From an uncultured Rhodospirillaceae bacterium (lineage in GTDB: Bacteria > Pseudomonadota > Alphaproteobacteria > UBA6615): 64,000 nucleotides of DNA. The stretch is taken from assembly GCA_964530225.1 (NCBI GenBank), contig CAZHBA010000057.1, forward strand, positions 553 through 64,552. Reading direction: 5' to 3'. The translations under genes and the position numbers were made by a program. Below the pieces are notes generated by a model. It saw only the letters and a list, made by a program, of their open reading frames with translations. It was not told where the DNA came from and made no database searches. Numbering within the stretch: position 1 is the first letter of the stretch; every line of letters begins with the position of its first letter. Positions 20,474-32,763 of this stretch are shown here, one piece after another.

Positions 20474-20655
20474 ACCCCCGGCGGCCCCTAGCAGACCCTT
20501 TCGGGCGCTGGCGGGAAAGCTACGTCCGGGACACAACACCATTATCCAACTAAAGGCGGTTGTCTGCCGGGGCTTTTAGGGTGCAGTATTACCCCGCGGT
20601 AACAAATTGCGGGCGTCATTCAAGGCGTTCGCGGTCAACAATCAGGGAGTTGATT

Positions 20656-21678
20656 ATGAAATTTACAGCAATCACAAGCGCAGCCGTTGTGGCGGCAGCG
20701 ATGTGGCTCACCGGCGGCGCTCACGCGGCGACGCTCGACGACGTTAAAGCCGCCGGCCAGTTGAAGTGCGGCATCAACACCGGTCTACCCGGATTTGCCT
20801 TCACCGACGACAAGGGCAACTGGACGGGCTTCGATGTAGCCTATTGCCGGGCGCTCGCCGCGGCGGTGCTGGGCGACCCCGGCAAGGTCAAGTACGTCAA
20901 CCTGACCGGCAAAAACCGTTTTCCAGCGCTCGCCTCGGGTGAAATCGACGTACTATCGCGCAACACCACTTGGACCTTCTCGCGCGATGTCGATTTAGGC
21001 TTCACCTTCATTGGCGTCAGCTATTACGACGGCCAGGGTTTTATCGGCCGCACAGCACTGGGCGTTAAAAGCGCCAAGGAACTGGACGGCGCGTCGATCT
21101 GTATCCAGACCGGCACGACAACCGAGTTAAACCTCGCCGACTTCTTTCGCGTTAACAAAATCAAGTACGAGCCGGTGCCGATCGAGACCAACGAGGAAGC
21201 GCGCAAGGGCTATGAAGCTGAGCGTTGCGACGTCTACACCACGGACGCCTCGGGCCTCGCCGCCACCAAGTCGACCTTCTCGGACGCCAGCAAGCACATG
21301 GTGTTCCCGGAAATCATCTCAAAAGAACCGCTGGGACCGTTGGTTCGCCAGGGCGACGACCAGTGGGCCGACATCGCCCGCTGGACCCTCAACGCGCTGA
21401 TCAACGCCGAGGAACTCGGTGTTACCCAGGCCAATGTTACGTCGATGGCGAACAAGGGTAATAATCCCGAAATCAACCGCATGCTCGGTTCCGAGGGGTC
21501 GTTGGGCGAAATGCTCGGTCTGTCCAAGACCTGGGCGGTCGCCGCTATTAAGGCCGGAGGTAACTACGCAGAAATCTTCGAACGTTACCTTGGCAAGAAC
21601 ACCGCGCTCGGTCTCGCGCGCGGCCAGAACGCACTCTACAAGGATGGCGGCATCCTCTACGCCCCGCCAATGCGTTAA
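20656..21678 (+). CDS. aapJ: General L-amino-acid ABC transporter substrate-binding protein.
   Basis: Signal peptide (MKFTAITSAAVVAAAMWLTGGAHA) plus a periplasmic binding fold. It is the first gene of aapJQMP. Confidence 0.85.
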   Translation: MKFTAITSAAVVAAAMWLTGGAHAATLDDVKAAGQLKCGINTGLPGFAFTDDKGNWTGFDVAYCRALAAAVLGDPGKVKYVNLTGKNRFPALASGEIDVLSRNTTWTFSRDVDLGFTFIGVSYYDGQGFIGRTALGVKSAKELDGASICIQTGTTTELNLADFFRVNKIKYEPVPIETNEEARKGYEAERCDVYTTDASGLAATKSTFSDASKHMVFPEIISKEPLGPLVRQGDDQWADIARWTLNALINAEELGVTQANVTSMANKGNNPEINRMLGSEGSLGEMLGLSKTWAVAAIKAGGNYAEIFERYLGKNTALGLARGQNALYKDGGILYAPPMR

Positions 21679-21694
21679 CCGCAAACAAATGAAT

Positions 21695-21730
21695 GGTCCG
21701 CCCCAAGAGGGCGGACCATTTCTTTTGTGT
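21695..21730 (+). terminator. Intrinsic terminator/attenuator between aapJ and aapQ.
   Basis: Hairpin ggtccgcccc-aaga-gggcggacc followed by TTTCTTTTGT. Confidence 0.7.
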
Positions 21731-22947
21731 ACTTAAATTACCTTGAGTTACTTGCCGTGGCGACCACAAGTCTAACCACCGAAACTGAAGGGCTAAAGTT
21801 CCGGTGGTTGTGGACGGATGAACGTTCGCGCGGGGTTATTTTTCAGTTCCTGGTGATCCTCGGTCTGGCGATTTTCATAGCCTTCATCGTGTCGAACACC
21901 ATTACCAATTTACAAAAAGCCGGCCTAGCGTCGGGTTTCGGATTTCTCGACGAACCTGCCTTTTTCGATATCAACCAGCGCATGATTGAGTACACCTCGC
22001 AGTCGACGTTCGGTCGCGCGTTGATCGTCGGATTTTTGAACACCATTCTGGTGTCGGCGCTGGGCATAATCGCAGCAACGCTAATCGGATTCAGCGCCGG
22101 CGTAATGCGGCTGTCGCATAACTGGATTCTCTGCAAGTTGGTGACAACCTATGTCGAATTCACCCGCAACGTACCAGTACTACTGCAAATTATCTTTTGG
22201 TGGGCGATTCTCACCGGTTTGCCGAAAGTTCGCGACAGCCTGTCGTTCGGCAACGCGGTATTTCTCAATAATCGCGGGTTCAGAATGCCGTCACCGGTGC
22301 CCGAAACCGGTTTCGTGTGGGTGTTTGCGGCATTTGTCGCCGGTGTTATCGCGACCGCCATCATCGCCAAATGGGCCCATAAGCGACAGGACAAAACCGG
22401 CCAGACCTTCCCGACCATATGGGTCGGGTTAGCGTTGATCATCGGACTTTCGGTAATCGTCTATTTCATTCTCGGACAACCACTGGCGTGGGACGTGCCC
22501 GAGCGCACGCGGTTTAACTTTCGTGGCGGCATCAACGTTACGCCGGAGTTGATCGCCCTGTGGTTTGCGCTATCGACTTATACCGGCGCGTTTATCTCGG
22601 AAAATGTGCGCGCCGGCATTATGGCGGTCAGCAAAGGGCAAACCGAGGCAGCATTCGCGCTTGGCCTGCGGCGCAATCAGACCATGCGTCTGATCATTAT
22701 TCCACAGGCGCTGCGCGTGATCATTCCGCCGCTGACCAGCCAATACCTCAACCTGACCAAGAATTCGTCGCTGGCCATCGCCATCGGTTATCAGGATCTG
22801 GTGTCGATCGGAGGTACCATCCTCAACCAGAGCGGTCAGGCGCTCGAGGTCGTCGGCATCTGGATGGCGGTCTATCTGGGTCTTAGCCTGCTCACCTCGG
22901 CCTATATGAACTGGTACAATAAACGCATCGCGCTGGTGGAACGATGA
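21727..22947 (+). CDS. aapQ: General L-amino-acid ABC transporter permease.
   Basis: Multi-TM permease carrying the EAA-like loop. The exact start is uncertain. Confidence 0.8.
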   Translation: MYLNYLELLAVATTSLTTETEGLKFRWLWTDERSRGVIFQFLVILGLAIFIAFIVSNTITNLQKAGLASGFGFLDEPAFFDINQRMIEYTSQSTFGRALIVGFLNTILVSALGIIAATLIGFSAGVMRLSHNWILCKLVTTYVEFTRNVPVLLQIIFWWAILTGLPKVRDSLSFGNAVFLNNRGFRMPSPVPETGFVWVFAAFVAGVIATAIIAKWAHKRQDKTGQTFPTIWVGLALIIGLSVIVYFILGQPLAWDVPERTRFNFRGGINVTPELIALWFALSTYTGAFISENVRAGIMAVSKGQTEAAFALGLRRNQTMRLIIIPQALRVIIPPLTSQYLNLTKNSSLAIAIGYQDLVSIGGTILNQSGQALEVVGIWMAVYLGLSLLTSAYMNWYNKRIALVER

Positions 22948-24053
22948 CCGACCAGCCCTTCCATCGCCAACAAGCCGAACTGCTACCGCACCGGTCCGCA
23001 CCGGCGACCACCGTCGGGGTGATTGGGTGGATACGCGCCAACCTGTTCGGCAGTTGGTTCAACAGCCTGGTGACGCTAGTCATCATCTATGTCGTATGGA
23101 TGGTTTTGTCGTCGCTGATCGACTGGGCGTTCATCAGTTCCCACGTTTCGGGCGAAAACCGGTTCGCCTGCACCACAGACGGCGCTTGCTGGGCTTGGCT
23201 CGACCAACGCATCCAGCAGTTCCTCTATGGCTTCTACCCTGCCGGCGAGACCTGGCGGATCAACTTGGCGTTCGTACTGCTGTTTCCGGCACTGGCGCCT
23301 TGGCTGTTCGACAACGTGCCGGGGGCACGTTACCTGCGCTGGTTCTCGATCGCCTATCCGGTGATCGCGACAATCCTGCTGGCCGGCGGCTTAGGCCTGA
23401 CCGTGGTGACCACCGACAAGTTCGGCGGTTTCATGTTGAACCTTACCGTCGGTCTGGCTGGTATCGTGCTGTCGCTGCCGCTCGGCATCGTGCTGGCGCT
23501 GGGCCGGCAATCGCGCCTACCGATTATCCGTATCTTATCGATCATCTTCATCGAAGCGGTGCGCGGCGTGCCTTTGATTACCCTGTTGTTCGTCTCCAAC
23601 ATTATCCTGCCGATCTTCCTGCCGCCCGATATCGCATTGGACAGCGTGATCCGCGTCATCGTCATGGTGACTGCGTTCGCGTCGGCGTATATGGCCGAAG
23701 TCATCCGCGGCGGCCTGCAGGCGATCCCCAAGGGCCAGTACGAGGCTGCCCAGGCGGTGGGGCTAAGTTACTGGAAGATGATGCGGCTGATCATCCTGCC
23801 GCAGGCGCTGAAGATCTCGATCCCTGGTATCGTCAACACCTTCATCGGCCTGTTCAAGGACACCACTTTGGTCATAATCATCGGCCTGTTCGACATCCTC
23901 GGTATCGCCAACGCCATGGTATCGAACCCCGACTGGCTCGGCCTGTCGTCCGAGACCTACGTGGTCGTAGCCCTGTTCTTCTTCACCGTGTGCTTTTCCA
24001 TGTCGCGGTATTCGATCCACCTCGAGCGCAAGCTCGATACAACGAGACGTTGA
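22944..24053 (+). CDS. aapM: General L-amino-acid ABC transporter permease.
   Basis: Second permease; its start overlaps the aapQ stop (ATGA). Confidence 0.8.
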   Translation: MTDQPFHRQQAELLPHRSAPATTVGVIGWIRANLFGSWFNSLVTLVIIYVVWMVLSSLIDWAFISSHVSGENRFACTTDGACWAWLDQRIQQFLYGFYPAGETWRINLAFVLLFPALAPWLFDNVPGARYLRWFSIAYPVIATILLAGGLGLTVVTTDKFGGFMLNLTVGLAGIVLSLPLGIVLALGRQSRLPIIRILSIIFIEAVRGVPLITLLFVSNIILPIFLPPDIALDSVIRVIVMVTAFASAYMAEVIRGGLQAIPKGQYEAAQAVGLSYWKMMRLIILPQALKISIPGIVNTFIGLFKDTTLVIIIGLFDILGIANAMVSNPDWLGLSSETYVVVALFFFTVCFSMSRYSIHLERKLDTTRR

Positions 24054-24065
24054 GGCGAGGCCGAT

Positions 24066-24839
24066 ATGTCAATTGCAGAAACCACTTCAAGCGCCGGCAC
24101 CGGCGAACCAGTAATTGAGATCACCGGTCTAAATAAATGGTTCGGCCCGTTCCACGTGCTGCGCGATATCAACCTGAGCATCGCCCGGCGTGAACGCATC
24201 GTCATTTGCGGCCCCTCGGGCAGCGGTAAATCGACCCTAATCCGCTGCATCAACCGGCTGGAAGAACATCAAGAAGGGCAAATCGTCGTCGACGGCACCG
24301 TGCTGACAAATAACCTTAAGAATATCGACGCCATCCGCCGCGAAGTCGGCATGGTGTTCCAGTCGTTTAACCTGTTTCCTCACCTCACCGTGTTAGAGAA
24401 TTGCACCCTGGCACCGATCTGGGTGCGCAAGACACCAAAAACGGAGGCCGAGAAATTTGCCATGGAACTGCTCGAGCGGGTCAAGATTCCAGAGCAGGCG
24501 GACAAGTATCCCGGCCAGCTATCGGGTGGCCAGCAGCAGCGCGTGGCCATTGCCCGCTCGCTATGCATGCGGCCCAACATAATGCTGTTCGATGAGCCGA
24601 CCTCAGCGCTCGATCCGGAAATGATCAAGGAAGTGCTCGACACCATGGTCGATCTGGCGGAGACCGGCATGACCATGCTGGTAGTCACCCACGAGATGGG
24701 CTTCGCCTCGCAGGTCGCCGACCGGGTGATCTTCATGGACGAGGGGCAGATCGTCGAGCAAAACACGCCGGACGAGTTCTTCAACAACCCGCATTCCGAC
24801 CGCACCAAGCTGTTCCTCAGCCAGATTCTCAGCCACTAA
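24066..24839 (+). CDS. aapP: Amino-acid ABC transporter ATP-binding protein.
   Basis: Walker [10 protein letters not shown], the ABC signature LSGGQQQR and Walker B MLFDE. Confidence 0.9.
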
Positions 24840-24922
24840 GGCTGGATGATTCTAGCCTTGGTCATAGGTTGGCCGTATCCTACCGCCACGTCAGTGCGCG
24901 CTGCTAGAAGCCTCTGGACTAC

Positions 24923-25066
24923 CCCCTCCCCTCCTTGAGGGGGCTGCGGGACGAACCGTCGTGCTGGTTGCACGACGCAAGTCGGACCGCAGAAAAAATG
25001 CTTCGGCTGGCTTACGCCACGCCATTGGCGTGACGGTCCAGCCTCAGCCCCCTCGCTGGGGGAGGG
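24923..25066. repeat. Structured ~145-bp element bounded by 22-25-bp inverted G/C-rich repeats (MITE/REP-like).
   Basis: cccctcccctccttgagggggctg at 24923-24947 and its near reverse complement cagccccctcgctgggggaggg at 25044-25066. Internal hairpins are present (cgtcgtgc...gcacgacg; cacgcc...ggcgtg). Confidence 0.5.
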
Positions 25067-25080
25067 AATTAGATCGCGGC

Positions 25081-26136
25081 CTAGTCGGTTTGCATCTCGC
25101 TGGCGAGACGCTCACTGAGAACTTCGCTGTAGCCGAACAGCGCCGGCGTGCCACCAGTATGTAGGAACACCACCTTCGATCCGGGCGCGACCGCGCCTTC
25201 CTTCGCCAAATGAACCAGTCCGGCAAGGGCGCGGCCGGAATAAACGGTGTCGAGCAGCAGACCTTCGGTACGCGAGCTCAGCAGCACGACGTCGTAGGTG
25301 GCATCGTTCAAGCGGCCATAGCCCGGCGACAGCACATCATCCATCGTGTGAACGTCTTCGCCAGAGACGACGGCAGATATTCCCAAAAGCTCTTCGACAT
25401 TGCGGCAGTTGGCAGCGATACGCTCAGCTTGCGCTGCGGCGTCGCGGCGCACGCAGATGCCAAACACCGGCGCATTTATACCGAGCGCCCGCAGGCCGAC
25501 CAAGAATCCGCCGTGGGTCATGCCGTTACCCGACGGCACAATGAAGGCGTCGACACTGCCCGGGTCATCTAATTGTTCGACCAGTTCCATGGCACCTTTG
25601 ACGTAGCCCAGCGCACCGGTCGGCGGATTTTCCGGCGCAAGGGGAATGACATAGGGATTGAAGCCCTGGTGCCGATCTTCTTCGGCAATCTCACGCAACC
25701 GGGCGTCCGCACCCGCCTCATCCTCGCCTTCGGGATAGGTGTGAACCGTCGCCCCTAAAAGTTTGTCCAACAACACGTTACCGCCGTTGACATAGCTGTC
25801 GTCGTAGAGCGGCACGCGGTCTTCCAACTGCACATGGCATCTCAGGCCCAGCTTGGCGGCAGCCGCCGCAGCGGCGCGAACATAGTTCGACTGGACGGCA
25901 CCGGTGATCAGAATCGTATCGGCATTCTGCGCCAGAGCCTTGCCCAGATAAAATTCAAGCTGCCGGACCTTGTTGCCACCGAAGGCCAGCCCGGTGGCGT
26001 CGTCTCTTTTTATCTGGAGCTTGAGGCCCAACTCATCTCCCAGCCGTGGCGCCGCCTCCAGGGGGGTTGGGTAATGGCCCAGGGGTGCCAACGGGAAAGC
26101 ATCCAGCAGACCGGAAACCTCGCGGGACGTCATCAT
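25081..26136 (-). CDS. D-cysteine desulfhydrase / ACC deaminase-family PLP-dependent enzyme.
   Basis: PLP-lysine motif GGNKVRQLEF in a tryptophan-synthase-beta-like fold. It is the last gene of a four-gene operon. Confidence 0.8.
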   Translation of the reverse strand: MMTSREVSGLLDAFPLAPLGHYPTPLEAAPRLGDELGLKLQIKRDDATGLAFGGNKVRQLEFYLGKALAQNADTILITGAVQSNYVRAAAAAAAKLGLRCHVQLEDRVPLYDDSYVNGGNVLLDKLLGATVHTYPEGEDEAGADARLREIAEEDRHQGFNPYVIPLAPENPPTGALGYVKGAMELVEQLDDPGSVDAFIVPSGNGMTHGGFLVGLRALGINAPVFGICVRRDAAAQAERIAANCRNVEELLGISAVVSGEDVHTMDDVLSPGYGRLNDATYDVVLLSSRTEGLLLDTVYSGRALAGLVHLAKEGAVAPGSKVVFLHTGGTPALFGYSEVLSERLASEMQTD

Positions 26137-26174
26137 GTCATCGCATCCAAATTACCGTTGATGACCGTGCTGGT

Positions 26175-27335
26175 TTAACCCAACGCGTGTTCTAGTTCGG
26201 CGAGTAGATCGCGTGAGTCCTCGACGCCCACCGACAACCGCACCAGACTATCGCTAATGCCTAGCTCCGCGCGGTTCTCCGGCGGGATCGAGGCGTGGGT
26301 CATGATCGCCGGATGCTCGATCAGGCTCTCCACCCCACCCAGACTCTCGGCTAGGGCGAACAGCCGACAACGCTCGAGGAAAGCGACGCTTTCGTCGAGC
26401 CCCCCTTTGAGGATCGCTGTCACCATGCCGCCATAGCCCTCCATCTGCCGGCTCGCCAGCGCGTGTTGCGGATGGCTTGCGAGGCCAGGATAGATCACCC
26501 GGTCGACCGCCTTGTGACCCTCCAAAAACTCGGCGACCAGTTGCGCGTTCTGCGAATGTTGCGCCATGCGCAGGTGCAGGGTCTTCAGCGCCCTCAGCGA
26601 CAAGAAACTGTCGAACGGGCCGGCGATGCCGCCGACCGCGTTCTGCAAATAGGCCAGCTGTTTGGCGAGATCACCGCGCTCGACGACAACAACGCCGCCG
26701 ACCACGTCGGAGTGGCCGTTCAAGTATTTGGTCGCCGAATGCACCACCACGTCGATGCCGTGGTCAAGCGGGCGCTGGATGTAGGGTGAGGCAAAGGTGT
26801 TGTCGCACACCGAGATCAGCCCGCATTCCTTGGCGACCACGGCGACGGCAGATAAATCGACGATGCGCAGCATGGGATTGGTTGGCGTCTCCACCCAGAT
26901 CATCTTGGTGTTGGGTTTGATCGCCGCGGTGATACGCTCGGGCTTGGTCATGTCGATGAAGGTGAAGTCTAGATTGGACGAGCGTCGGCGCACGTTTTCG
27001 AAGATGCGAAAGGTACCGCCATAGAGGTCGTCCATCGAGATCACATGATCGCCGCTGTCGAGCAACTCCAGCACCGTGCCAATCGCCGCCATGCCCGAGG
27101 CGAAGGCGAAGCCATCGCTGCCGTTTTCCAGATCGGCAACGCATGCCTCATACGCGCCGCGCGTCGGGTTCTGGGTGCGGGCGTATTCGTAGCCCTTGTG
27201 CTTGCCCGGGCTCTCCTGAACGAAGGTCGAGGTGGCGTAAATCGGCGTCATGATGGCACCGGTCGGCGGGTCGGGCTGCTGGCCGGCATGGATGGTCCGC
27301 GTCGCGAACCGAGGCCGGTTAGTCTTGTCGCTCAT
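26175..27335 (-). CDS. Cys/Met-metabolism PLP enzyme of the gamma family (cystathionine gamma-lyase / gamma-synthase / beta-lyase-like).
   Basis: N-terminus TRTIHAGQ... plus the Cys_Met_Meta_PP fold; it ends ...SVGVEDSRDLLAELEHALG, typical of the family. Confidence 0.8.
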   Translation of the reverse strand: MSDKTNRPRFATRTIHAGQQPDPPTGAIMTPIYATSTFVQESPGKHKGYEYARTQNPTRGAYEACVADLENGSDGFAFASGMAAIGTVLELLDSGDHVISMDDLYGGTFRIFENVRRRSSNLDFTFIDMTKPERITAAIKPNTKMIWVETPTNPMLRIVDLSAVAVVAKECGLISVCDNTFASPYIQRPLDHGIDVVVHSATKYLNGHSDVVGGVVVVERGDLAKQLAYLQNAVGGIAGPFDSFLSLRALKTLHLRMAQHSQNAQLVAEFLEGHKAVDRVIYPGLASHPQHALASRQMEGYGGMVTAILKGGLDESVAFLERCRLFALAESLGGVESLIEHPAIMTHASIPPENRAELGISDSLVRLSVGVEDSRDLLAELEHALG

Positions 27336-27365
27336 AACGTCGGGATACTCCACAAACAAAACGCG

Positions 27366-27791
27366 TCAATCGATGATCGCGACTGCGTCGATTTCGATTA
27401 GACAGCGTGGGTCAGTCGCCAACTGCACCACCTGCACCGTCGTCGTCGTCGGCTTGTTGTCACCGAAATATTCGCCCCACACGCGGTTGAGCGAATCCTG
27501 GTCGGACAGATCGGTGCAATAGCGGTTGGCGGTGACGATGTCGGCGAACGTCGCGCCCACCGAGTCGAGACCCTTTTTTATGTTCTCCAAAACCACACGC
27601 GCCTGCCCTTCCATGTCCGGCGGGATGTTGTCGAACTCTTCCGGGATATGCGGGTGGCTGTGATAGACGGGTGTGGCCGTACAACCGGCCAAATAGACGG
27701 TAATGCCGCCAGTCACCTTGATCGCTGGGGCATAGGGCATCCACATGTCCGGCGCATCGGGCCAATGAACGTGTTCGATTTGCTTCGCCAT
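27366..27791 (-). CDS. RidA / YjgF / endoribonuclease L-PSP-family protein.
   Basis: 141 aa with a YjgF-like core. It ends 6 nt upstream of the PLP-enzyme gene. Confidence 0.75.
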   Translation of the reverse strand: MAKQIEHVHWPDAPDMWMPYAPAIKVTGGITVYLAGCTATPVYHSHPHIPEEFDNIPPDMEGQARVVLENIKKGLDSVGATFADIVTANRYCTDLSDQDSLNRVWGEYFGDNKPTTTTVQVVQLATDPRCLIEIDAVAIID

Positions 27792-27880
27792 GGTGTTCTT
27801 CCCTCGAAAAAATTTGCGTAATGGCAGTGTAGCGGGGTTTTCGCCCCCGAAACAGCAGCAGCCCTATGTTGAAACGAACA

Positions 27881-28918
27881 TCAGGCGTCGTAAGGCGCGT
27901 GGTGCCCCTGCCCCAACGGGTCGCGGTAAGCATCGTCGCCGCTGAGTAACCCGCGCACCAGAAGGTCCCTAAAGGACTCGATGGTTTGCGCGACGCCAGT
28001 CGACAGGTCAACTCGCGGCCAGTCGCCAACGAGGCCGCGCAATTCGCTATCGTCGAGACCGCTGACGAAGGGCAGTGGGTCGCCGTCTATACGCACTTGC
28101 GCATCCGGCATCGTTTGCTGGATCATCGCGACCACCTCACCGATCGTCGTATCGGCGCCGCACAGATCACATACATGGGCACCCTCCACGTCAGCCCGCG
28201 CCGCGCGGATGCAGGCGTCGGCGACTTCGACCGTGTGCTGCAGCATGATCGGCCCGTCAAAGGGGATGGCGAAGCGCTGCCCTGCGGCAGCGGCCAGCAT
28301 CGCCTTGGTCGGTGCCGCGGTGACGCCCTGGTCGCGCCCGGGGCCGTAGACCGTGTGGGGCCGAATACCGATGCTCGGTACCTGCCAGGTTTTCCAATAA
28401 ACGTCTGCTATCGCTTCGTCGGCCATCTTGAACGCACCGTAGAGGGTGCTGGGCCAGGCTTCGCCGTCGGACGGCAGCGCCGCGACCGAACTGGCGTAAG
28501 CGAAGCCGCGTATACCCAGCGCGCGCGCCGCTTCGAAGACATTGACCTGGCCGACCACGTTGACCTGTGCACCCCGCACGGGATCGGCATTGCAGAACGG
28601 CACTTGCAGCGCCGCCAGATGAACGATCGCCGATATGTTGTGCTCGACCATGACGTCTTTCAGCAGGTCCGGCTCGCGAATATCACCGGCCACCCACGTG
28701 ACCGCGTCGGCCGTCGCCGGTTCCATCATCAGGTGCAGACGCCGCCGGTCCTCGGCGATATCGAACACCACCGGCATATCACCATCGCGCACCAGATTGG
28801 CAACCACCTGAGCGCCGATACAGCCGGCCGCACCAATCACTAGAATCGGTCCCTCGGATGTGGTTATTTTTGCCTCCCTAGTCAGATCGCTAACAGGTGA
28901 ATAATCGCCTGAACACAA
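27881..28918 (-). CDS. NAD-dependent epimerase/dehydratase (extended SDR).
   Basis: Rossmann motif VIGAAGCIGAQV and a YxxxK-type fold. It is the first gene of the operon. Confidence 0.75.
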   Translation of the reverse strand: MCSGDYSPVSDLTREAKITTSEGPILVIGAAGCIGAQVVANLVRDGDMPVVFDIAEDRRRLHLMMEPATADAVTWVAGDIREPDLLKDVMVEHNISAIVHLAALQVPFCNADPVRGAQVNVVGQVNVFEAARALGIRGFAYASSVAALPSDGEAWPSTLYGAFKMADEAIADVYWKTWQVPSIGIRPHTVYGPGRDQGVTAAPTKAMLAAAAGQRFAIPFDGPIMLQHTVEVADACIRAARADVEGAHVCDLCGADTTIGEVVAMIQQTMPDAQVRIDGDPLPFVSGLDDSELRGLVGDWPRVDLSTGVAQTIESFRDLLVRGLLSGDDAYRDPLGQGHHAPYDA

Positions 28919-29048
28919 CAGGTTACCGCTAACTTAAACAATTTGTTTACCCTATTCGTGTTCCAGTCGCGCTTAAATTTCGGCGAACATAAATGCGTCA
29001 TCTCCAACGCAGTTAACGGGCGAAAGACCACCCCCTAACGACCGACCG

Positions 29049-29671
29049 ATGATCAGCCGATTACACCAGAGTACCTCAGACAGCTTCCTCAGCGGTGACT
29101 ACCGCAAGACAGTCGCCAGTTTGGATGACTTGTTAGCGCTTGTTAAGGCCCGTGAAGTTGCACCGCAACAGATCACGCAGCCGCTTTGGACTATTCCGCA
29201 AAACGCCGAACGTGTTCACGACGCAAAAGTTAGGCAAACCACCAATAATAAAGGCACCTTGCACCACCATACACTCGTTGTGCGCATGGGCGGGGAAGTG
29301 GTCAACGAACTGGCTAAGGGTGAAAGTGAATTCTCGGCAGAGCTAATCTGTTTATCGACTGAAATTCACTACCTTATGCGCAACCTCGACAAGGCTATTG
29401 CAGTCCTCAAGGAGAACGAAGAGAAAATCGTTCGGTGCAGCTGCTTGCCGCCTGCTACATGCTAAACAACCAACCTAACGAGGCCAGCCAGAAAATCTAT
29501 TACCGGCCGTCGTTTGAAATTGCCAAGTGGTTGGTACCTCATATGACCGTCGAATCGATGAAAGATTACCATTTCGGCGCTGAAGACCTGTATTTGCGCC
29601 ATGTCTCCGACCACGTCGTCGAGATAATTTTCCACCTCTTCACTGAATTCGCCTCTGGCGAAGGAGCTTAG
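29049..29671 (+). CDS. Hypothetical protein encoded across two frames (138 aa and 78 aa pieces overlapping at 29435-29465) in a low-GC islet.
   Basis: GC is about 45-50% against ~60% in flanking DNA. The two ORFs overlap by 31 nt in different frames, so this is either a frameshifted gene or two small genes. No homology is recognised. Confidence 0.35.
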
Positions 29672-29734
29672 GCTCTGCGGGCCATTACCCGAGCCGATTG
29701 ACATGCCCGGCCAAGGCGGTTAAATCTCCTCTAT

Positions 29735-29795
29735 CGCGCCGATTTGAGTGGCCAGCTTGCGGGCGCGTAATAAATGCAGCTAAATGGGCGATTTG
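29735..29795 (+). promoter_or_regulatory. Candidate SAM-responsive leader (SAM-II-like) upstream of metZ.
   Basis: CGATTTGA...CCAGCTTGC...GCAGCTAAA arrangement, repeated once more at 29790-29815. A stem (ccgcc...ggcgg) plus T7 at 29809-29838 follows. metZ and metA leaders in alphaproteobacteria commonly carry SAM-II. This is pattern recall only. Confidence 0.3.
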
Positions 29796-29995
29796 AACTC
29801 CGCCCAGCTTGGCTACGGCGGTTTTTTTGTTGTTTTAGAGAGTGTTAAGTAATTCCGGACCGATCCCCCGACGGCAGCGCCGCAAACTGGATCCGCGGTA
29901 ATTTGATGGGCAGCTTGCGTCCGCGTCACCAATAGCTAAAGCGCCGTGGGACAAACGTTCCGCGGGCCCGAACAACGGCCTCGGAACCGATTTGT

Positions 29996-31184
29996 AATGA
30001 CCAAAGATACCCCTAAATTCCGTCAGGAAACCGCCCTTGTGCGCGGTGGCCTAGAGCGCTCGCCTTTCCGCGAGACCAGCGAGGCGCTGTTCCTCAATTC
30101 CGGCTACGTGTTCGACAACGCCGCGCAGGCGGAAGCCGCCTTCAAGGGCGAGAACGACAACTACATCTACTCGCGCTACGGCAACCCCACGGTCAACATG
30201 TTCCAGGAACGCCTGGCCGCGCTCGAAGGCGCCGAGGCGTGCTATGGCACCGCGACCGGCATGGCGGCAGTGTTCGCCTCACTGGCCTGCCAGCTTAACA
30301 CCGGCGACCGGGTGGTGTCCTCGCGCGCGGTGTTCGGCTCGTGCCACATCATCGTCGATCAGATCCTGCCACGCTGGGGCATCGAGACGGCATTCGTCGA
30401 CGGCACCAACCTGGACGAATGGGAAGCCGCCCTGTCGCAGCCAACCAACGTGGTGTTCCTGGAAAGCCCGTCGAACCCCATGCTCGACCTGGTCGATATC
30501 GCCGCAGTCAGTGACATGGCGCACGCCGCCGGCGCCTGCGTCATCGTCGATAACGTGTTCGCCACGCCGCTCTACCAGCGCCCGTTCGAGCTGGGCGCCG
30601 ATATCGTCGTCTACTCCGCCACCAAGCATATCGACGGCCAGGGCCGTTGCCTCGCCGGCGCAGTGCTGGCCAGTGCCGAATTCATGACCGAGAAGTTCAT
30701 GCCGTTCTACCGGCACACCGGCCCGTCACTCAGCCCGTTCAACGCCTGGGTCATACTCAAGGCGCTGGAGACCCTATCGGTGCGGGTTGAACGCCAGTCG
30801 GACGCCTCGCTCGACCTGGCGCGCTTTCTGCTAGAGCAACCGAAAATCAAGCAGATCTGCCATCCGGGGTTGGATAGCCATCCCCAGGCCGAGCTGGCAC
30901 AGCGGCAGATGTCGGGTTTTGGCAATCTGGTGACCTTCGAAGTAGACGGTGGCAAGGACGCGGCGTTCCGGCTGACCGATGCGCTGTCGATCATCGATAT
31001 CTCGAACAATCTAGGCGACACCAAGAGCCTGGTCTGCCATCCGGCGACGACCACCCATTCGCGGCTATCGGAAGAGGAGCGCGCCCAGCTTGGCATCTCG
31101 CCCGGCGTGCTGCGCGTTTCGGTGGGTCTGGAACATATCGACGACCTGAAGGAAGACCTGGAACGCGCCCTCGCCGCGGTTTGA
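29996..31184 (+). CDS. metZ: O-succinylhomoserine sulfhydrylase.
   Basis: Gamma-family PLP enzyme with the typical MetZ N-terminus (MTKDTPKFRQETALVRGG) and ~395 aa length. Confidence 0.85.
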
Positions 31185-31716: not shown

Positions 31717-32763
31717 TCAGCGCACCCGGACGTGAGGCAAGCCGGTTTTTAATTCACCGATCATCGTGGCAAAGCTGTAACCCTGTTCATGGAACAGCGC
31801 GACCACCGCATCCGCCCGGTCAGCCGGACACGACACAAGTAGACCGCCCGAGGTTTGCGGATCCATCAGCATATTCTTGTGCCACTGCTCTATGTCATCA
31901 GGCACAGCGACATGATCGGCAAAACTTGCCCAGTTGCGGTCAGCAGCTCCCGTGTTGTAACCACTCTGGGCATATTTGAGGGCATGCGGGAGGATAGGTA
32001 ACTTGTCCCAATCCAGCATGGCGGCGAGACCCGAACCCTCGCAGATTTCGAACAGATGGCCAACGAGCCCAAAGCCGGTGACGTCGGTGACGGCGTTGAC
32101 CCCGTCAACATCCGCTAGGTCGACGCCAATAGAATTGAGCTTTGTGGTGCTCATGAGCATCTCTTTGTAGGCTTCGGGATCGAGCTCATTCTTGCTCATG
32201 GCAGCGCCGAGGATACCGATGCCCAACCCCTTGCCCAATATCAACACGTCGCCATCCTTGCCGTCGGAATTACGTTTGATCTTGCCGGGGTGCACGAGGC
32301 CAACTACCGCCAGTCCGTAGATGGGTTCGGGCGCATCGATGGTATGGCCGCCACTGACGGGCACGCCCGCATCGGCACAAGCGCTAACGCCACCGGCCAG
32401 TACCTGCTGGATTTGTTCCTGCGGCATCTTATCCACGGGGAAACCGGCAATGGCTAACGCCATGATTGGCTTACCGCCGTTGGCATAGACATCGGATAGG
32501 GCGTTGGTGGCCGCGATACGGCCATAATCGTGCGGATCATCCACGATGGGCGTGAAGAAATCGGTGGTCGCAACCACGGCCTGTTCTTCACTGATCTTGT
32601 AAACGGCCGCATCATCACCCGTCTCAAATCCAACTAACAGCGCCGGATTTACGACCTGGGGCGGCAGTTTCGAAAGTATGTCTTTAAGCACCGACGGTGC
32701 TACTTTGCAGCCTCACCCACCTCCGTGGGACAGCTCGGTCAGTCTCTTGACCTCCGCGTCCAT
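31717..32763 (-). CDS. selD: Selenide, water dikinase (selenophosphate synthetase), a selenocysteine-containing form with an in-frame TGA at 32713-32715.
   Basis: The track ORF starts at VLKDIL. Extending upstream gives [32 protein letters not shown]..., which aligns with E. coli [22 protein letters not shown], putting TGA at the Cys17 position. An 11-nt spacer then a hairpin uagcacc-guc-ggugcua with GU in the loop follows the TGA (SECIS-like). The rest of the protein aligns with SelD along its length. Confidence 0.85.

Follow-up and report, generated by a model that had tools for sequence, protein, structure and literature searches.

Four neighbouring genes on the minus strand of a 64,000-nucleotide stretch of DNA from an uncultured Rhodospirillaceae bacterium (GenBank assembly GCA_964530225.1, contig CAZHBA010000057.1; the whole 64-kb stretch is hereafter referred to as the window) encode a short-chain dehydrogenase/reductase (SDR), a Rid-family protein and two enzymes that depend on pyridoxal phosphate (PLP). 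The question raised by this locus is whether the four genes form one operon that serves one dedicated pathway, as was originally predicted. The reading that we favour, with a confidence slightly above even, is that of a lineage-restricted neighbourhood of ordinary sulfur amino-acid catabolic or salvage genes, organised in at least two transcription units, and not of one dedicated four-gene pathway. The features concerned are the following.

25081-26136, minus strand: fold-type-II PLP lyase of the DcyD/CuyA family (PALP), 351 amino acids (aa), PF00291 with 160 bits; an accessory 3' gene of the closest relatives.
26175-27335, minus strand: cystathionine gamma-lyase (CGL), 386 aa from the orthologous ATG, with the longest open reading frame (ORF) extending to 27359, PF01053.
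27366-27791, minus strand: Rid-family protein, 141 aa, of a subfamily that lacks Arg105 and has an HxHPH insertion, PF01042.
27826-27855, minus strand: bipartite promoter-like motif CTGTTTC-N15-GCTACACT, with rid starting about 35 nt downstream.
27881-28867, minus strand: extended (GalE-like) NAD-dependent SDR of an uncharacterised subfamily, PF01370 with 92 bits.

The four minus-strand ORFs were found where the original prediction had placed them, with PALP at 25081-26136, Cys_Met_Meta_PP at 26175-27359, Rid at 27366-27791 and SDR at 27881-28918. They match PF00291, PF01053, PF01042 and PF01370 with E-values of 9.6e-47, 2.2e-149, 2.5e-20 and 4.9e-26, respectively, each over nearly the whole profile, and such strong matches indicate that they are genuine genes and not chance ORFs. 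The assignments to the extended SDR, Rid, CGL and DcyD/CuyA-type PLP lyase families are retained, while the label of an archetypal RidA is not. The PALP protein is identical on three contigs from metagenomes or metagenome-assembled genomes (MAGs). The predicted gap of 38 nt between CGL and PALP is correct, whereas the 6 nt given for Rid and CGL apply to the longest ORFs only; orthologues and gene callers place the CGL start at ATG 27335, which makes this gap 30 nt. SDR and Rid are separated by 89 nt. No intrinsic-terminator-like site is predicted within 25081-28918.

Gene order was compared across the best 80 genome loci that carry this Rid protein (numbers preceded by L denote the related or homologous loci retrieved for comparison). 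CGL adjoins Rid only in the 8 closest of them, L008-L015, where Rid is 86-95% identical and which all come from uncultured Alphaproteobacteria, including MarineAlpha12. Near Rid in the other 72 there is no CGL, no DcyD-like gene and no SDR of this type; these loci fall into at least three unrelated contexts, with a carboxyltransferase and a classical SDR, with a uracil-DNA-glycosylase-like protein, or with a thiamine-diphosphate enzyme. The Rid-CGL pair is unbroken in all nine genomes, counting the window, and its gaps of 30-53 nt contain no intervening element. SDR is directly upstream of Rid in seven of the nine (the window, L008 and L011-L015), at SDR identities down to 63%. In L009 (the same locus as L004), SDR and rid are separated by an opposite-strand gene for a GNAT acetyltransferase, and in L010 another opposite-strand gene occupies this slot. 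PALP follows CGL in three of eight informative genomes, namely the window, L009 and L011, and in two lineages it was placed co-directionally, 7-38 nt after CGL. Its slot is taken by an opposite-strand Mem_trans (AEC-type) transporter gene in L012 and L014, and probably also, judging by the spacing, in L013 and L015, and by other genes in L010. Only the window and L011 have the four genes in an unbroken row, and five relatives have no PALP at this site. Conserved synteny of the four-gene order, which was looked for, is therefore absent.

Six high-GC genomes, the window and L008-L012, were compared upstream of rid, and all of them share an unchanged CTGTTTC-N15-GCTACACT motif, even L009 and L010, in which another gene, on the opposite strand, precedes rid. 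This motif occurs once in the window, with 0 occurrences expected by chance. In L008, L010 and L012 the SDR start, too, is preceded by boxes resembling GCTACACT, at a distance of about 35-40 nt, and these would fit a -10-type promoter element of this clade. Taken from the sequence, the motif suggests a separate promoter for rid and CGL, and the short Rid-CGL distance in nine genomes, together with a motif that is present upstream of rid only, forms a signature of co-transcription. The CGL-PALP spacer in L011 is 270 nt long and contains many palindromes, which suggests that PALP is separately transcribed there. A scan of 24700-30100 with the sigma-70 consensus found no promoter. A riboswitch or attenuator in the SDR-rid spacer was considered and rejected, as the fold is no better than that of shuffled sequences (z = 0.03) and has no Rfam match. 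The single operon of the original prediction keeps its one strand, its short gaps and its freedom from internal terminators; its gene order is not conserved, and a conserved promoter-like motif lies before rid.

The opposite extreme would be that the genes have no functional coupling, being neighbours by descent in a syntenic segment, with the Rid-like protein a housekeeping product whose gene merely lies upstream of CGL. This Rid subfamily is carried by no fewer than 567 of the species genomes that were scanned, with identities of 76-95% and at least four unrelated neighbourhoods; the window is core chromosome, with genes that include carB, greA, clpB, prfA, hisS, ispG and lysC; and the positions of PALP and SDR vary, all of which such independence would explain. 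It would not explain the constant proximity of Rid and CGL in nine genomes with the motif upstream of rid only, nor the co-directional insertion of PALP just after CGL in two lineages, and we regard it as quite unlikely.

CGL is the best understood member of the cluster. It matches PF01053 with 497.6 bits over positions 2-380 of 381, and its PLP-binding lysine motif reads HSATKYLNGHSD. Compared with proteins in the PDB, it scores 570, 564 and 537 bits against the CGLs of Xanthomonas oryzae, Stenotrophomonas maltophilia and Pseudomonas aeruginosa, respectively, versus 436 bits against the best cystathionine gamma-synthase and 373 bits against methionine gamma-lyase. It is just under the cutoff of the equivalog model PRK07811 (505.5 bits, cutoff 513) and under that of PRK07671 (504.3 bits, cutoff 594). 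As a baseline we used 80 metagenomic loci (L099-L178) with CGLs that are 60-71% identical. Directly upstream of CGL, on the same strand and at a median gap of 24 nt, 60 of these 80 loci have a gene for a protein of about 465 aa, whose best curated match is cystathionine beta-synthase (CBS) over its full length. None of the 80 has a Rid of the window's type, PALP or SDR beside CGL, and neither the 64-kb window nor the related genome loci L008-L087 contain a CBS. The scores to solved CGLs and the CBS-paired orthologues identify the protein as a canonical reverse-transsulfuration CGL, here without its usual partner, and the earlier view that this is not standard transsulfuration is not supported.

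The Rid protein, which stands in the position of that partner, belongs clearly to its family (PF01042 with 73.1 bits, where the cutoff is 27.3, over positions 4-120 of the 121 in the profile) and fails the RidA subfamily model TIGR00004 (57.9 bits, cutoff 106.25). When it is aligned with HMMER, both as a single sequence and as a family profile, its Thr116, in the segment KPTTTTVQV, coincides with the arginine of the P-A-R motif in PH0854, ST0811 and 7kgc. Threonine is invariant at this position, that of Arg105, in 18 homologues of 76-93% identity. Ser predominates there in more distant members, of 36-62% identity, with Thr, Asp, Asn or Ala in others and Arg in 1 of 12. The segments KPTTTTVQV and PVYH[HS]HPH are invariant among the 18 close homologues, as is Y20, the equivalent of Tyr17; E133, the equivalent of Glu120, is invariant as well and coincides in the alignments with the glutamate of IEIEA. 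The inserted segment A-x-P-x-Y-H-x-H-P-H is absent from RidA, is kept down to 36% identity, and falls in the loop that follows the third strand and that lines the active site in RidA. An AlphaFold2 (AF2) model of the protein, built from the 18 close homologues, had a mean pLDDT of 60; it was judged too poor and was not used.

Arg105 of Escherichia coli TdcF binds the carboxylate of the substrate, and its mutation nearly abolishes imine hydrolysis (PMC4433059). Rid subfamilies that lack this residue apparently do not hydrolyse imines, and their function is still unexplained (PMC4433059). Since the subfamily found here lacks the arginine needed for canonical hydrolysis of 2-aminoacrylate and other imines, a scavenger role should not be assumed for it, and the proposal of a RidA dedicated to enamine and imine products is not borne out by its threonine and its TIGR00004 score. 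Imine products may be processed by the protein at a modified site, in which the invariant R90 or R129 might conceivably stand in for Arg105, or its role may be an unrelated one. The subfamily is compact: among 1.8 billion proteins, the representatives at 50% identity that reach E <= 1e-30 number just 39. It is spread over the Alphaproteobacteria and is also found in MAGs labelled Burkholderiales, Tectomicrobia, Bryobacteraceae and Flavobacteriales. Its commonest context elsewhere consists of a carboxyltransferase followed by Rid, a classical SDR and two secreted or cytochrome-like proteins.

The catalytic motifs of the SDR are intact. Its Rossmann motif GAAGCIG, a Ser-Ser pair and the YxxxK motif YGAFK are invariant in 35 homologues, and an Asp after strand β2 is typical of NAD preference. 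The best NCBIfam match has 70.9 bits against a cutoff of 475, and the GalE model gives 58.7 bits against 262.3. The AF2 model of the SDR has a pLDDT of 93.6. Foldseek aligned it to UDP-hexose 4-epimerases and to GalE-like L-threonine 3-dehydrogenases with the same TM-scores, 0.75-0.78, at 18-29% identity, and the fold therefore does not decide between a nucleotide sugar and a small amino or hydroxy acid as substrate. Neighbourhoods were not informative either, as five homologue loci show unrelated contexts. Sugar-nucleotide or polysaccharide genes are absent from the window and from these five neighbourhoods, which include those of homologues at 53-78% identity, and no threonine-pathway genes were seen near SDR homologues in the loci examined. 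The homologues at 78% and 66% identity stand alone. The sugar-linked or unusual substrate that had been attributed to an epimerase is thus not supported, as there are no sugar-nucleotide neighbours and the fold is equally near to the threonine dehydrogenases.

The start of the SDR gene has changed in this genome. Where orthologues have ATG, this gene has ATA (28865-28867, minus strand), which follows a GGGAGG Shine-Dalgarno sequence at 5 nt. An independent assembly, L002, shares the ATA, while ATG is found in seven of seven relatives examined. The alternative starts are an in-frame TTG 17 codons upstream, with which the longest ORF begins (TTG 28918), or a GTG that cuts into the first β-strand; gene callers use GTG 28840. 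With its ATG changed to ATA, the SDR may be poorly translated here.

These observations bear on the pathway as it was first proposed, in which a single four-gene operon would sustain a high alpha,beta-elimination flux, Rid would scavenge the 2-aminoacrylate-type products of both PLP enzymes, and SDR would prepare a sugar-linked or unusual sulfur amino-acid substrate. Such a pathway would agree with the single strand, with gaps of 89, 30 and 38 nt that hold no terminator, with the enamine or imine products that both PLP families yield (PMC11193023), and with the known clustering of Rid genes with those of D-cysteine desulfhydrase and cystathionine lyase (PMC4433059); however, it would have to rely on a Rid that has no essential Arg and scores far under the RidA cutoff, and on an SDR whose start codon is mutated and whose homologues, where examined, have no sugar-nucleotide genes nearby. 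The order that it needs is not conserved (PALP in three of eight genomes, SDR interrupted in two), a conserved promoter-like motif lies inside it before rid, and its other genes are missing near Rid in the remaining 72 of the best 80 loci. We consider this explanation very improbable.

A smaller unit deserves more attention, although we still think it unlikely: SDR, the Rid-like protein and CGL may form a clade-specific three-enzyme module, in which an Arg-less, His-rich Rid with altered chemistry takes the usual place of CBS and the DcyD-like lyase is optional. GC content in the clade ranges from about 38% to about 64%, and an SDR-Rid-CGL arrangement that is shared across so wide a span, in seven of nine genomes and with SDR identity down to 63%, must be old. 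The Rid-CGL pair is never broken, and the Rid sequence is very strongly constrained: its HxHPH insertion, in the loop that lines the RidA active site, does not vary. The catalytic triad of SDR is intact, and its model is as near to the amino-acid-oxidising, GalE-like threonine dehydrogenases (root mean square deviation about 3 Å) as to sugar epimerases. However, synteny is just as strong for the flanking ATP-binding cassette (ABC) importer and, at a greater distance, for FGase, GNAT and MR_MLE genes, in a backbone of about 20 kb, so the gene order is not conserved beyond background and may have been inherited rather than selected. Furthermore, a GNAT gene is tolerated between SDR and rid, a separate promoter-like motif precedes rid, the SDR homologues (66-78% identity) and the Rid subfamily generally occur apart, and the ATG of SDR is lost here. 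A more far-reaching idea, in which we place little trust, is that the Rid-fold protein stands for an enzyme subfamily not yet characterised, which may depend on a metal and is marked by the HxHPH insertion in the active-site loop and by Ser or Thr instead of Arg105, with 76-95% identity over hundreds of species; this alphaproteobacterial clade would have recruited it, along with the GalE-like SDR, for a new route, independent of CBS, that would feed or complete the CGL reaction.

The PALP lyase is closest to the enzymes that act on D-cysteine and D-cysteate. Its best NCBIfam match is the D-cysteate sulfo-lyase CuyA, with 328.8 bits and thus under the cutoff of 450. It is also under the cutoffs of three DcyD models (264.5, 242.1 and 240.5 bits against 429, 610 and 469, respectively) and of the subfamily model TIGR01275 (255.3 bits, cutoff 289.4). 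Among PDB entries, two D-cysteine desulfhydrases score 252 and 239 bits and ACC (1-aminocyclopropane-1-carboxylate) deaminase 203 bits. We take the signature of ACC deaminase to be Glu295 after the catalytic Tyr and Leu322 in the HxGG motif, as numbered in the Pseudomonas enzyme. PALP was rejected as an ACC deaminase, having Ser and Thr at these positions (VYSG and HTGG), as in DcyD and CuyA, and scoring 213 and 201 bits with models whose cutoffs are 392 and 550. Its motifs GGNKVRQLEF, AVQSNYVR, DTVYSGRA and HTGGTPALF align with Salmonella DcyD, and it has all six active-site residues that are common to DcyD and CuyA, which are Asn50, Lys51, Ser78, Asn79, Tyr287 and Thr315 in the numbering of StDcyD (PMC11193023).

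The gene contexts of PALP homologues were compared as well. At 76% identity, the nearest orthologues outside the clade, on the marine contigs L088-L091 (6239-9521), are part of a tight adh_short-PALP-TauE-GST operon, which is a candidate module for desulfonation of a sulfonate of the cysteate type. The TauE gene beside these orthologues mirrors the cuyA-cuyZ pair, and this leans towards a sulfonate substrate for PALP. Homologues at 58-61% identity adjoin a divergent gene for an FAD-dependent oxidase. The retrieved cuyA locus of Ruegeria pomeroyi has an exporter and a LysR regulator; in the window there is no sulfite exporter, no LysR regulator and no CuyB racemase. A close CuyA orthology was rejected, as PALP is 42% identical to R. 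pomeroyi CuyA and a 55% identical homologue on a Ruegeria plasmid has no adjacent exporter. PALP as a substitute for CBS was rejected too, since most members of the clade have no PALP at this site. The GC content at third codon positions is 0.70 in PALP and 0.80 in CGL, and this lower value, together with the patchy presence of the gene, fits a recent relocation of PALP to the 3' end of the rid-CGL unit.

The favoured reading of two ordinary units can be put together as follows. The first would consist of the rid-like gene, the CGL gene and, in this genome, the DcyD/CuyA-like gene, and would be driven by the promoter-like element upstream of rid. CGL would convert L-cystathionine into cysteine, 2-oxobutanoate and ammonia, and it may also release H2S from cysteine or homocysteine, as characterised homologues do. 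The lyase would beta-eliminate a D-configured 3-substituted alanine to pyruvate and ammonia; its substrate could be D-cysteine, with release of H2S, or D-cysteate or a related sulfonate, with release of sulfite. Its gene would be a recent addition at the 3' end of this unit in the sub-clade of the window. Rid would be co-transcribed with CGL, yet is of a distinct Arg-less subfamily. The second unit would be the extended SDR, a neighbour with a promoter of its own, whose canonical start codon has been lost in this genome. Substrates may plausibly enter through the adjacent convergent importer:

20560-24839, plus strand: polar amino-acid ABC importer composed of a binding protein, two permeases and an ATPase (PF00497, PF00528 twice, PF00005).

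The ATPase of this importer, which is transcribed towards the cluster, is GlnQ/TcyN-like. The importer also adjoins the cluster in L009, L011 and L013-L015, and the ATPase gene is found at the cut end of L012.

In this reading, the gene identities, the patterns of residues and of synteny and the conserved motif are shown; the substrates, the transcription units and any role of Rid are inferred. Several points weigh against it. The promoter role of the motif before rid is inferred, and its upstream half is a poor match to a sigma-70 -35 element. There is no terminator or stable structure between SDR and rid, so read-through from SDR is likely and the four genes may share transcripts. The SDR-Rid-CGL order is kept between genomes with GC contents of about 60% and about 39%, which could reflect selection for a three-gene module. 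Substrates were assigned to all four proteins by family membership only; for PALP, two NCBIfam scores, those for CuyA and for the DcyD subfamily, are under their cutoffs, and for CGL, no CBS was found within 64 kb as a source of cystathionine.

The regions on both sides of the cluster provided further observations. The convergent intergenic region after PALP contains G/C-rich palindromes of the form CCCTC(T/C)CCC…GGGAG(A/G)GGG at about 24920-24946 and at 25041-25066. Palindromes of the same type are present in the CGL-PALP spacer of L011 (L011 9640-9830). They look like REP-type elements or bidirectional terminators. On the other side, the low-GC islet noted earlier was confirmed, with a GC content of 0.52 versus 0.61 for the four-gene cluster. 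It spans 28950-29720 and has two plus-strand ORFs, 29049-29465 (138 aa) and 29435-29671 (78 aa), with no match in Pfam, NCBIfam or PHROG, as well as two terminator-like hairpins on the minus strand, at 29011-28994 and 29265-29253. The slot of the islet is occupied by a methyltransferase gene in L004. The suspected leader of metZ that senses S-adenosylmethionine (SAM) proved to be present beyond the islet, as a divergent neighbour outside the cluster:

29726-29959, plus strand: two tandem SAM-II aptamers in the metZ leader (RF00521).

The first aptamer, at 29726-29803, has 47.4 bits, which exceeds the gathering score of 36, and the second, at 29885-29959, has 34.4 bits and is just under it. With tandem aptamers in the leader, metZ must start at ATG 29997 (gene 29997-31184, 395 aa) and not at GTG 29946. 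MetZ matches TIGR01325 with 579.6 bits (cutoff 510). Further along, selD (31717-32762, minus strand) has an in-frame TGA at 32712-32714, at the catalytic position (…LSHGGG[TGA]GCKVAPS…), and its product is probably a selenocysteine-containing selenophosphate synthetase; the version of selD in the ORF list has 324 aa and begins after the TGA.

If the favoured reading is true, the locus itself adds little, as it would amount to known sulfur amino-acid enzymes rearranged in a lineage-specific way among uncultured Alphaproteobacteria, and it would show that a RidA label beside PLP enzymes is not proof of enamine scavenging. The part worth pursuing is the Rid subfamily, which is widespread and strongly conserved, has no catalytic Arg, and carries a His-rich insertion at the site that is active in RidA. 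Its tight co-transcription with the gene of a well-understood enzyme, CGL, would give a concrete context for assays. Furthermore, the known organosulfonate (cysteate-type) lyases of marine bacteria could be joined by the product of the DcyD/CuyA-like gene and by its marine orthologues with a TauE link.

The locus can be compared with several known systems. Clustering of RidA, Rid1 and Rid2 genes with those of D-cysteine desulfhydrase and cystathionine beta-lyase has been reported previously (Niehaus et al. 2015, PMC4433059). The claim that this is not a textbook pathway is right for the exact combination, which has not been described, but the association of Rid with such lyases has been known since 2015 (PMC4433059); our literature search for the exact four-gene cluster returned only this general Rid paper. 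The window resembles those clusters in having a Rid-fold gene directly upstream of, and co-directional with, genes for a cystathionine lyase and a member of the D-cysteine desulfhydrase family. It differs from them in that their RidA, Rid1 and Rid2 proteins bear Arg105, while the protein found here has Thr, an HxHPH insertion and a score that fails the RidA cutoff, and in that outside this clade its subfamily has no CGL, DcyD-like gene or SDR nearby.

PALP shares the fold-type-II PLP family and the active-site residues with CuyA, of the CuyA/CuyZ/CuyR system of Ruegeria pomeroyi, and with DcyD of Salmonella and E. coli, and its 76% identical orthologues adjoin a gene of the TauE/SafE sulfite-exporter family, as cuyA adjoins cuyZ. 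It differs in its 42% identity to SpCuyA, in scores under the cutoffs, and in a window with no exporter, LysR regulator or CuyB. The SDR is like the GalE-like extended SDRs in its GxxGxxG motif, its Ser/Tyr/Lys triad, its length of about 328 aa and its TM-scores of 0.75-0.78 to both groups of structures, and unlike them in its 18-29% identity to any solved member and its 70.9 bits against a cutoff of 475. The metZ unit follows the SAM-II-metZ arrangement of Alphaproteobacteria, with an RF00521 aptamer above the gathering score upstream of the O-succinylhomoserine sulfhydrylase gene; here, however, two aptamers are in tandem, and the unit is divergent and separate from the cluster. Finally, CGL is a close homologue of the enzyme in the CBS-CGL operon of Proteobacteria, with 537-570 bits to the solved CGLs, whereas the position about 24 nt upstream of it is held by a Rid-like gene and not by CBS. 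The CBS-CGL, CuyA/DcyD and SAM-II-metZ systems are textbook knowledge or recently characterised, and what sets this locus apart from them is the kind of Rid protein that it encodes and the place of this protein where CBS normally sits.

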